Below are positions 62,224-62,319 of a DNA stretch of 64,000 nucleotides, in pieces (position 1 is the first letter of the stretch; each line of letters starts with the position of its first letter). The DNA is taken from the NCBI RefSeq assembly GCF_016903815.1, contig NZ_CP069973.1. One strand, 5' to 3'. The translations under genes were made by a program, and so were the position numbers. The stretch comes from Escherichia coli (GTDB lineage Bacteria; Pseudomonadota; Gammaproteobacteria; Enterobacterales; Enterobacteriaceae). The notes under the pieces are model-generated. The model had not been told where the DNA came from. It worked only from the letters and a program-made list of their open reading frames with translations, and did not search any database.

Positions 62224-62239
62224 TGCAAAGCGGATGCCA
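62224..62239 (-). promoter_or_regulatory. Sigma-54 (-24/-12) promoter of rutA
   Basis: Reverse complement TGGCATCCGCTTTGCA: GG and GC 10 nt apart, about 30 nt upstream of rutA ATG. Confidence 0.7.
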
Positions 62240-62303
62240 GTTTTTAAAAAGTGAATGTTATTAATATGTTAATGTTAAGTTGTCTAAAATATCTGGAAAA
62301 AAG

Positions 62304-62319
62304 TGGACTAAACGGTCAA
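62304..62319. promoter_or_regulatory. RutR operator
   Basis: TGGACTAAACGGTCAA matches the TTGACCA-N2-TGGTCAA type palindrome, in the rutA-rutR intergenic region. Confidence 0.7.

Follow-up and report, generated by a model that had tools for sequence, protein, structure and literature searches.

The window analysed here, a 64,000-nt stretch of E. coli DNA, carries at its 3' end (last 3 kb) the genes rutB and rutA on the minus strand, rutR on the plus strand, and putA. This rutB-rutA/rutR/putA locus is 100% identical to that of E. coli strain 7/2, and 5,421 of the 5,426 complete E. coli genomes contain it. The divergent rutA-rutR spacer, 287 bp long, houses both sites under study, i.e. a sigma-54 promoter and a RutR operator; 13 of the 320 compared spacer positions differ between K-12 and the window, the -24/-12 elements and the RutR box being free of differences. 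The region is the already well-characterised rutA/rutR control region of E. coli, an ordinary one that is known for K-12. The coordinates of its features are given in Table 1.

For comparison, one genome per species was scanned, which gave 80 rutA loci, 79 of which reach upstream of rutA and were compared. They span more than 20 genera of Enterobacterales, including Escherichia, Enterobacter, Klebsiella, Raoultella, Kosakonia, Leclercia, Lelliottia, Buttiauxella, Mangrovibacter, Pantoea, Erwinia, Tatumella and Chimaeribacter. In all 75 loci with enough upstream DNA, rutA has a divergent rutR homologue less than 500 bp away.

Table 1. Features of the rutA-rutR region, in window coordinates
Feature	Position	Strand	Description
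rutA CDS from the phylogenetically conserved start	61047..62138	-	363 aa, ATGAAAATTGG, preceded by a GAGAGG Shine-Dalgarno; PGAP start
rutA 5' leader block	62174..62193	-	GCAGGATGCAGCGCCCCGTC, +21 to +40; K-12 ATG immediately 5'; conserved in 64/80 loci
Predicted rutA transcription start	62213 (+/- ~2 nt)	-	12 nt downstream of the C of the -12 GC
Sigma-54 (-24/-12) promoter of rutABCDEFG	62224..62240	-	17-mer CTGGCATCCGCTTTGCA; GG 62237-62238, GC 62225-62226
AT-rich block, IHF-like	62257..62275		rutA strand CATTAACATATTAATAACA; RutR box on one side, sigma-54 promoter on the other; overlaps the candidate rutR -35 region
Sigma-70-like rutR promoter candidate	62261..62290	+	TTAATA-18-TAAAAT; faces rutR
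RutR operator (RUT box)	62304..62319		TGGACTAAACGGTCAA on the plus strand; centre ~-98.5 from the predicted rutA start
Promoter-proximal NtrC-like 17-bp dyad	62326..62342		TGCACATAAAACATGCA; centre ~-121; 6 bp from the RutR box
Distal NtrC-like 17-bp dyad	62347..62363		TGCGCGATGAAAGTGCA; centre ~-142
rutR	62426..63064	+	PGAP annotation; TetR-family repressor, divergent; NF011584 RutR equivalog, E = 8e-140

The sigma-54 promoter of rutABCDEFG and its upstream elements

The initial annotation, made from the sequence alone, had described GG and GC elements at sigma-54 spacing on the rutA strand, and the exact sequence is found there: the minus strand from 62239 to 62224 reads TGGCATCCGCTTTGCA, in a GG-N10-GC arrangement, and the preceding C completes the 17-mer CTGGCATCCGCTTTGCA. 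The core lies within an exact match to TGGCAC-N5-TTGCW (62224-62239, minus strand), and this is the sole exact match to TGGCAY-N5-TTGCW in the window, where 0.38 would be expected and where 33 of 100 shuffles gave at least one. A position-weight matrix (PWM) scan had been proposed as a check. Scored with a PWM built from 41 other ChIP-verified intergenic sigma-54 sites, the rutA site reaches 14.4, which falls within the range of the training sites (8.6-21.8, median 16.1) and ranks third of the ~128,000 window positions, yet is not above the shuffled maxima (the best score of a shuffled window averages 14.7).

Motif statistics in 64 kb are not decisive by themselves, either for this site or for the RutR box described below. 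The observation rises above chance through its position, its orientation and its conservation in 79 of 79 other loci. In every compared locus the exact TGGCAY-N5-TTGCW motif stands on the rutA strand upstream of rutA, mostly 56-127 nt (185 nt in one locus) from the conserved rutA start, and a 460-nt upstream region would contain such a match by chance with a probability of ~0.001 per locus. The -24/-12 elements are invariant in 80 of 80 rutA loci, whereas the N5 spacer and the flanks diverge. In K-12, peak OS10 from ChIP-seq of sigma-54, assigned to rutA, lies on CTGGCATCCGCTTTGCA on the minus strand (Bonocora et al. 2015, PMC4591121), and a gSELEX peak of the RpoN holoenzyme falls in the rutA/rutR spacer (Shimada et al. 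2021, PMC8743547).

The scan also returned a higher-scoring site elsewhere in the window. The top sigma-54 PWM match, GTGGCGTGAATTTTGCG (11617-11633, plus strand), lies ~100 nt upstream of rmf (11736-11903, plus strand) and is identical to the published sigma-54 ChIP-seq site OS09 (rmf, PMC4591121); it belonged to the PWM training set. The K-12 sigma-54 ChIP motif OA02, located beside rutR (CCGGCATGAACAATGCG), is absent from the window at up to 2 mismatches.

Transcription of rutA probably starts close to 62213. The published rule of 19 bp downstream of the motif centre leads to the same nucleotide and leaves 18 nt to the K-12 start codon (PMC4591121), in which paper the EcoCyc status of the rutA promoter is given as 'predicted'. 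No experimentally mapped rutA transcription start was found in the literature searched.

Upstream of the RutR box lie two 17-bp dyads with ends of the TGCA type that resemble NtrC sites. Counted directly against the NtrC consensus TGCACCAnnnTGGTGCA, used as cited in the literature, the proximal dyad matches at 9 and the distal one at 10 of the 14 positions. This count, together with conservation, replaced a pattern with a 7-nt gap, which had given 84 matches against 91 expected and was mis-specified. The TGC...GTGCA ends of the proximal dyad are invariant or nearly so among 42 distinct Enterobacteriaceae sequences, and CTGCAC...GCGCA is conserved in the distal one; the proximal dyad keeps a distance of 6-7 bp from the RutR box in all loci. 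The two dyads are 21 bp apart centre to centre and are thus on the same helical face. It is this conservation and geometry, rather than motif score, that suggests that both are NtrC sites. In Erwiniaceae, the distal NtrC-like dyad (TGCACCTTTTTTGACCA) also includes a RutR half-site.

Under nitrogen starvation, a 94-fold NtrC ChIP-seq peak was reported at ycdMLKJIHG, the older name of rutABCDEFG (Brown et al. 2014, PMC4066584). Transferred from K-12 coordinates, the published peak interval maps to 62182-62262 of the window, that is, to the sigma-54 promoter and not to the dyads. When the coordinates of PMC4591121 and PMC4066584 are compared, the same offset appears at glnK, glnH, astC and ddpX, so the peak position probably reflects limited resolution or cross-linking through the DNA loop.

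Between the RutR box and the sigma-54 promoter, the AT-rich stretch TTAACAnnTTAATAACA is invariant or nearly so in Enterobacteriaceae. The E. coli block agrees with the IHF consensus WATCAANNNNTTR at 7 of the 9 specified positions, and the block of one locus (L043) agrees perfectly; we consider it a putative IHF site. The overlapping rutR promoter candidate is the only sigma-70-like match in 62100-62460. With this promoter, the RutR box would lie just downstream of the rutR start, which agrees with its published position downstream of the RNA polymerase site of rutR (PMC4325133).

The RUT box and the probable control of both divergent units

A RutR-type palindrome about 65 bp beyond the sigma-54 motif had also been noted, and the exact string is present, with a measured gap of 64 bp. 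The box matches TTGACCAnnTGGTCAA at 11 of 14 positions, including the A at position 4 and the T at position 13. At the 11/14 level the window shows no enrichment, with 4 matches against 2.6 expected. With a PWM built from 17 other RutR sites, likewise a check proposed beforehand, the box scores 15.6 and is the second-best match in the window, while shuffled maxima average 13.5 and reach 15.9. A RutR-like dyad occurs upstream of the sigma-54 motif in every compared locus, 63-65 bp from it in Enterobacteriaceae and mostly 72-74 bp in Erwiniaceae. The Erwiniaceae loci (L045 ~2309-2345, and most of those of Pantoea and Erwinia) contain a second RutR-box-like sequence, e.g. TGGACCAATTACTCCAG, 3-4 bp past the first, with which their longer spacing is consistent.

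Two further RutR-PWM matches lie elsewhere in the window. The best one, TTGACCACACGGTCCA (12367-12382, score 16.0), is inside fabA (ORF 11973-12689, minus strand), ~117 nt into the gene, and corresponds to the published intragenic fabA RutR ChIP-chip site (12/14, +117.5; Shimada 2008, PMC2475637). The third-best, TGCACCAGATGGTCAT (29635-29650), scores 14.3, slightly above the shuffle mean; it lies within a 597-aa ORF (29286-31079, plus strand), is not among the published RutR targets and is possibly a chance match.

The RUT box of K-12 has been studied directly. The RutR ChIP-chip site in the rutA intergenic region is TGGACTAAACGGTCAA itself (11/14) and coincides with the site footprinted earlier (Shimada et al. 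2008, PMC2475637). In EMSA, RutR bound a rutA-rutR fragment with a KD of ~8.6 nM and was released by uracil (Nguyen Ple et al. 2010, PMC2952853), with an I0.5 of ~9 nM (PMC2952853, PMC2475637, PMC4325133). Four operator-constitutive substitutions in the box relieve rutR autorepression (Nguyen Le Minh et al. 2015, PMC4325133). The nitrogen-controlled expression of rutABCDEFG through sigma-54 and RutR, as put forward in the initial annotation, is therefore backed by published experiments on identical K-12 sequences.

Based on these observations, we are highly confident that the spacer is a divergent rutA-rutR control region in which a sigma-54/NtrC-driven promoter serves rutABCDEFG and the RUT box tunes both units. 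Published K-12 work has established the occupancy by sigma-54, NtrC and RutR, the sequence of the RutR box, the release by uracil and autorepression through the box. The exact transcription start, the bases contacted by NtrC, the involvement of IHF and the manner in which RutR interferes with the sigma-54 promoter are what we infer here.

The mechanism that we propose is as follows. RNA polymerase with sigma-54 would sit as a closed complex on the -24/-12 element, lacking the power to start alone. Upon nitrogen limitation, phosphorylated NtrC would bind upstream, most likely at the dyads at ~-121 and ~-142, oligomerise, loop over the AT-rich IHF-like spacer and remodel the polymerase into an open complex, and transcription of rutABCDEFG would begin at ~62213. 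The single RUT box separates the enhancer from the promoter and also follows closely downstream of the sigma-70 promoter of rutR; apo-RutR bound to it would therefore damp both divergent units until uracil releases it. The operon would thus require nitrogen limitation and be tuned by pyrimidine.

It may be argued that the RUT box is essentially a rutR auto-operator that acts as a roadblock and hardly affects the rutA promoter directly, so that this promoter would answer to NtrC only. The genetic test with the operator-constitutive substitutions did use a rutR-lacZ fusion (PMC4325133), the box lies ~75 bp upstream of the -24 element, beyond the polymerase footprint, and deletion of rutR left rutA mRNA unaltered in exponential phase (PMC10891134). 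However, the last of these tests was run with NtrC inactive, when derepression could not show; the result means that RutR is not the limiting control under such conditions, and it fits NtrC activation as the limiting step. Moreover, RutR repression of rutABCDEFG has been reported in several papers (PMC2475637, PMC10891134, PMC4325133), although one paper terms the role of RutR at rutA 'activation' (PMC2952853), in conflict with the repression model. The spacings of the box, fixed relative to the sigma-54 motif within Enterobacteriaceae and relative to the proximal dyad in all loci, argue for constraint with respect to the rutA promoter too. On balance, we consider it improbable that the box serves rutR alone.

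That sigma-54 binds its motif unproductively or that the motif matches by chance, and that rutA is read from another promoter, is very hard to sustain: many E. coli sigma-54 ChIP sites are not known promoters (PMC4591121), the PWM score does not exceed the best 64-kb shuffle match and the literature searched yielded no start-site map, but the exact motif is kept across the rutA loci, always on the rutA strand, amid diverging flanks and spacer, NtrC occupies the site in vivo under nitrogen starvation (PMC4066584), and the single sigma-70-like site in the spacer faces rutR.

The NtrC- and RutR-controlled region described here resembles known systems to various degrees. Compared with the K-12 promoter rutAp (b1012/ycdM), which is under sigma-54 and NtrC control, the window has the same 17-mer, on the same strand and equally far from rutA; functionally nothing differs, one element being seen in two E. 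coli strains. The operator is likewise identical to the published rutA site, a 16-bp semi-palindrome with critical A4 and T13 (Shimada 2007/2008, PMC2475637). In contrast to the RutR operator of carAB, which matches the consensus at 13 of 14 positions and from which RutR acts positively at -184.5 of a sigma-70 promoter (PMC2952853, PMC4325133), the rutA box matches at 11 of 14 and acts negatively between an enhancer and a sigma-54 promoter.

Other NtrC/sigma-54 promoters, i.e. glnAp2, glnK, glnH, astC and nac, share with rutA the -24/-12 core, tandem dyads sharing one helical face (~-120/-140 in rut) and an AT-rich, bendable spacer. The enhancer of glnAp2 has a geometry of ~-108/-140. Unlike these systems, the rut region has dyads that match TGCACCAnnnTGGTGCA more weakly (9-10/14) and carries, between enhancer and promoter, a site for a pathway-specific repressor as well as a divergent sigma-70 promoter.

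The RutA start codon and the rutA leader

Annotations of the rutA start conflict: K-12 RefSeq uses the ATG at 62195 (382 aa; position 1512 in L002), whereas PGAP uses that at 62138 (363 aa). The 3' end of the sigma-54 motif is 29 nt from the former and 86 nt from the latter. The initial annotation, which placed the promoter ~30 nt upstream of rutA, was thus correct for the K-12 codon but not for the comparatively favoured one. It also proposed that the promoter helps to fix the start codon. Since both ATGs are downstream of the predicted transcription start, the promoter rules out nothing but the mechanical TTG at 62228 and does not choose between them.

If the K-12 codon were the true RutA start, the mRNA would have an 18-nt leader and encode the 382-aa protein. 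An open frame connects the ATG at 62195 to rutA in both the source strain and K-12, an ATG or GTG is conserved at this place in many genera, and the 382-aa form has been crystallised as 5WAN. An AGGA stands just upstream of it, but at a poor spacing of 1 nt, while every locus has a GAGAGG-type Shine-Dalgarno and ATGAAAATTGG at the 62138-type start. Across the loci, the upstream ATG occurs in all three frames relative to rutA; an in-frame stop interrupts the stretch between the predicted transcription start and the 62138-type ATG in 44 of 80 loci, and eight loci with a 30-35-nt leader lack the region altogether. In the alignment with the TIGR03612 RutA model, model position 1 falls on residue 20 of the 382-aa form. 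As 363- and 364-aa forms have also been crystallised (short forms 6SGG and 6SGL), the structures do not decide the question.

Variation within E. coli points in the same direction. In one lineage (L004, strain SCPM-O-B-8794), a TGA, which is CGA in the window, lies within the 19-codon extension, ~21 nt upstream of the rutA ATG at 2501, so the 382-aa form cannot be made there. The long frame is open in the source strain, where some 382-aa protein could therefore still be made. We consider it quite unlikely that 62195 is the true RutA start; the comparative data favour the ATG at 62138 (363 aa) as the probable conserved start over the 382-aa K-12/UniProt-style one.

The segment around the K-12 ATG is conserved in another sense. 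Together with this codon, the leader block spans 62174-62195 on the minus strand (GCAGGATGCAGCGCC...). Its pattern is GCAGGA(T/A/C)GCA.CGC.GCG, with a further GGA ~10 nt upstream, and in 64 of the 80 loci, in both families, its distance from the promoter is nearly constant (+11 to +34, mostly +20 to +25). A short ORF (MQDAAPR...) begins at the ATG or GTG of the block in many genera; its frame relative to rutA may be any of the three, and its end often coincides with the rutA start (AUGA or UGAUG). This upstream ORF (uORF) shows a weak coding signature: in its own frame the synonymous fraction is 0.36, compared with 0.17 and 0.26 in the two shifted ones, and the variable columns number 2, 3 and 4 by codon position. 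An in-frame TAG interrupts it in L062, and in some Erwinia loci the start codon is missing.

A conserved RNA structure was also considered for the leader and set aside, as RNAalifold gave no consensus structure for 62 distinct leaders; a comparison with Rfam gave no match at E <= 1. The leaders also vary in length. In some Enterobacter, Buttiauxella and Dryocola loci (L023, L025, L029, L042-L044, L048 and L049), the sigma-54 motif starts 56-61 nt from the ATG, and their leaders of 30-35 nt are without the conserved block. Longer leaders, of 101 and 159 nt, are found in L039 and L041.

We tentatively suggest that the leader block (GCAGGAUGCA.CGC with the upstream GGA) might be a functional post-transcriptional element, although we regard this as the less probable alternative. 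Possible roles are a uORF (MQDAAPR...) translationally coupled to rutA or a site for a CsrA-type RNA-binding protein; no relevant paper linking CsrA to rutA was found in the literature searched.

Significance for rut regulation

The sites of the initial annotation are real, accurately located and correctly interpreted, and for E. coli they are textbook and database knowledge. The promoter/operator finding itself adds nothing new to rut regulation; it demonstrates that a reader without tools was able to recognise a textbook enhancer-dependent promoter together with a pathway-specific repressor site. Its by-products are modestly useful, i.e. the comparative support for the RutA start at 62138 and a conserved leader block that is open to tests of translational control. 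If the block is indeed functional, it would add a third layer of control to the rut operon, and in K-12 the uORF would merely happen to be fused in frame to rutA, yielding the 382-aa 'RutA'.
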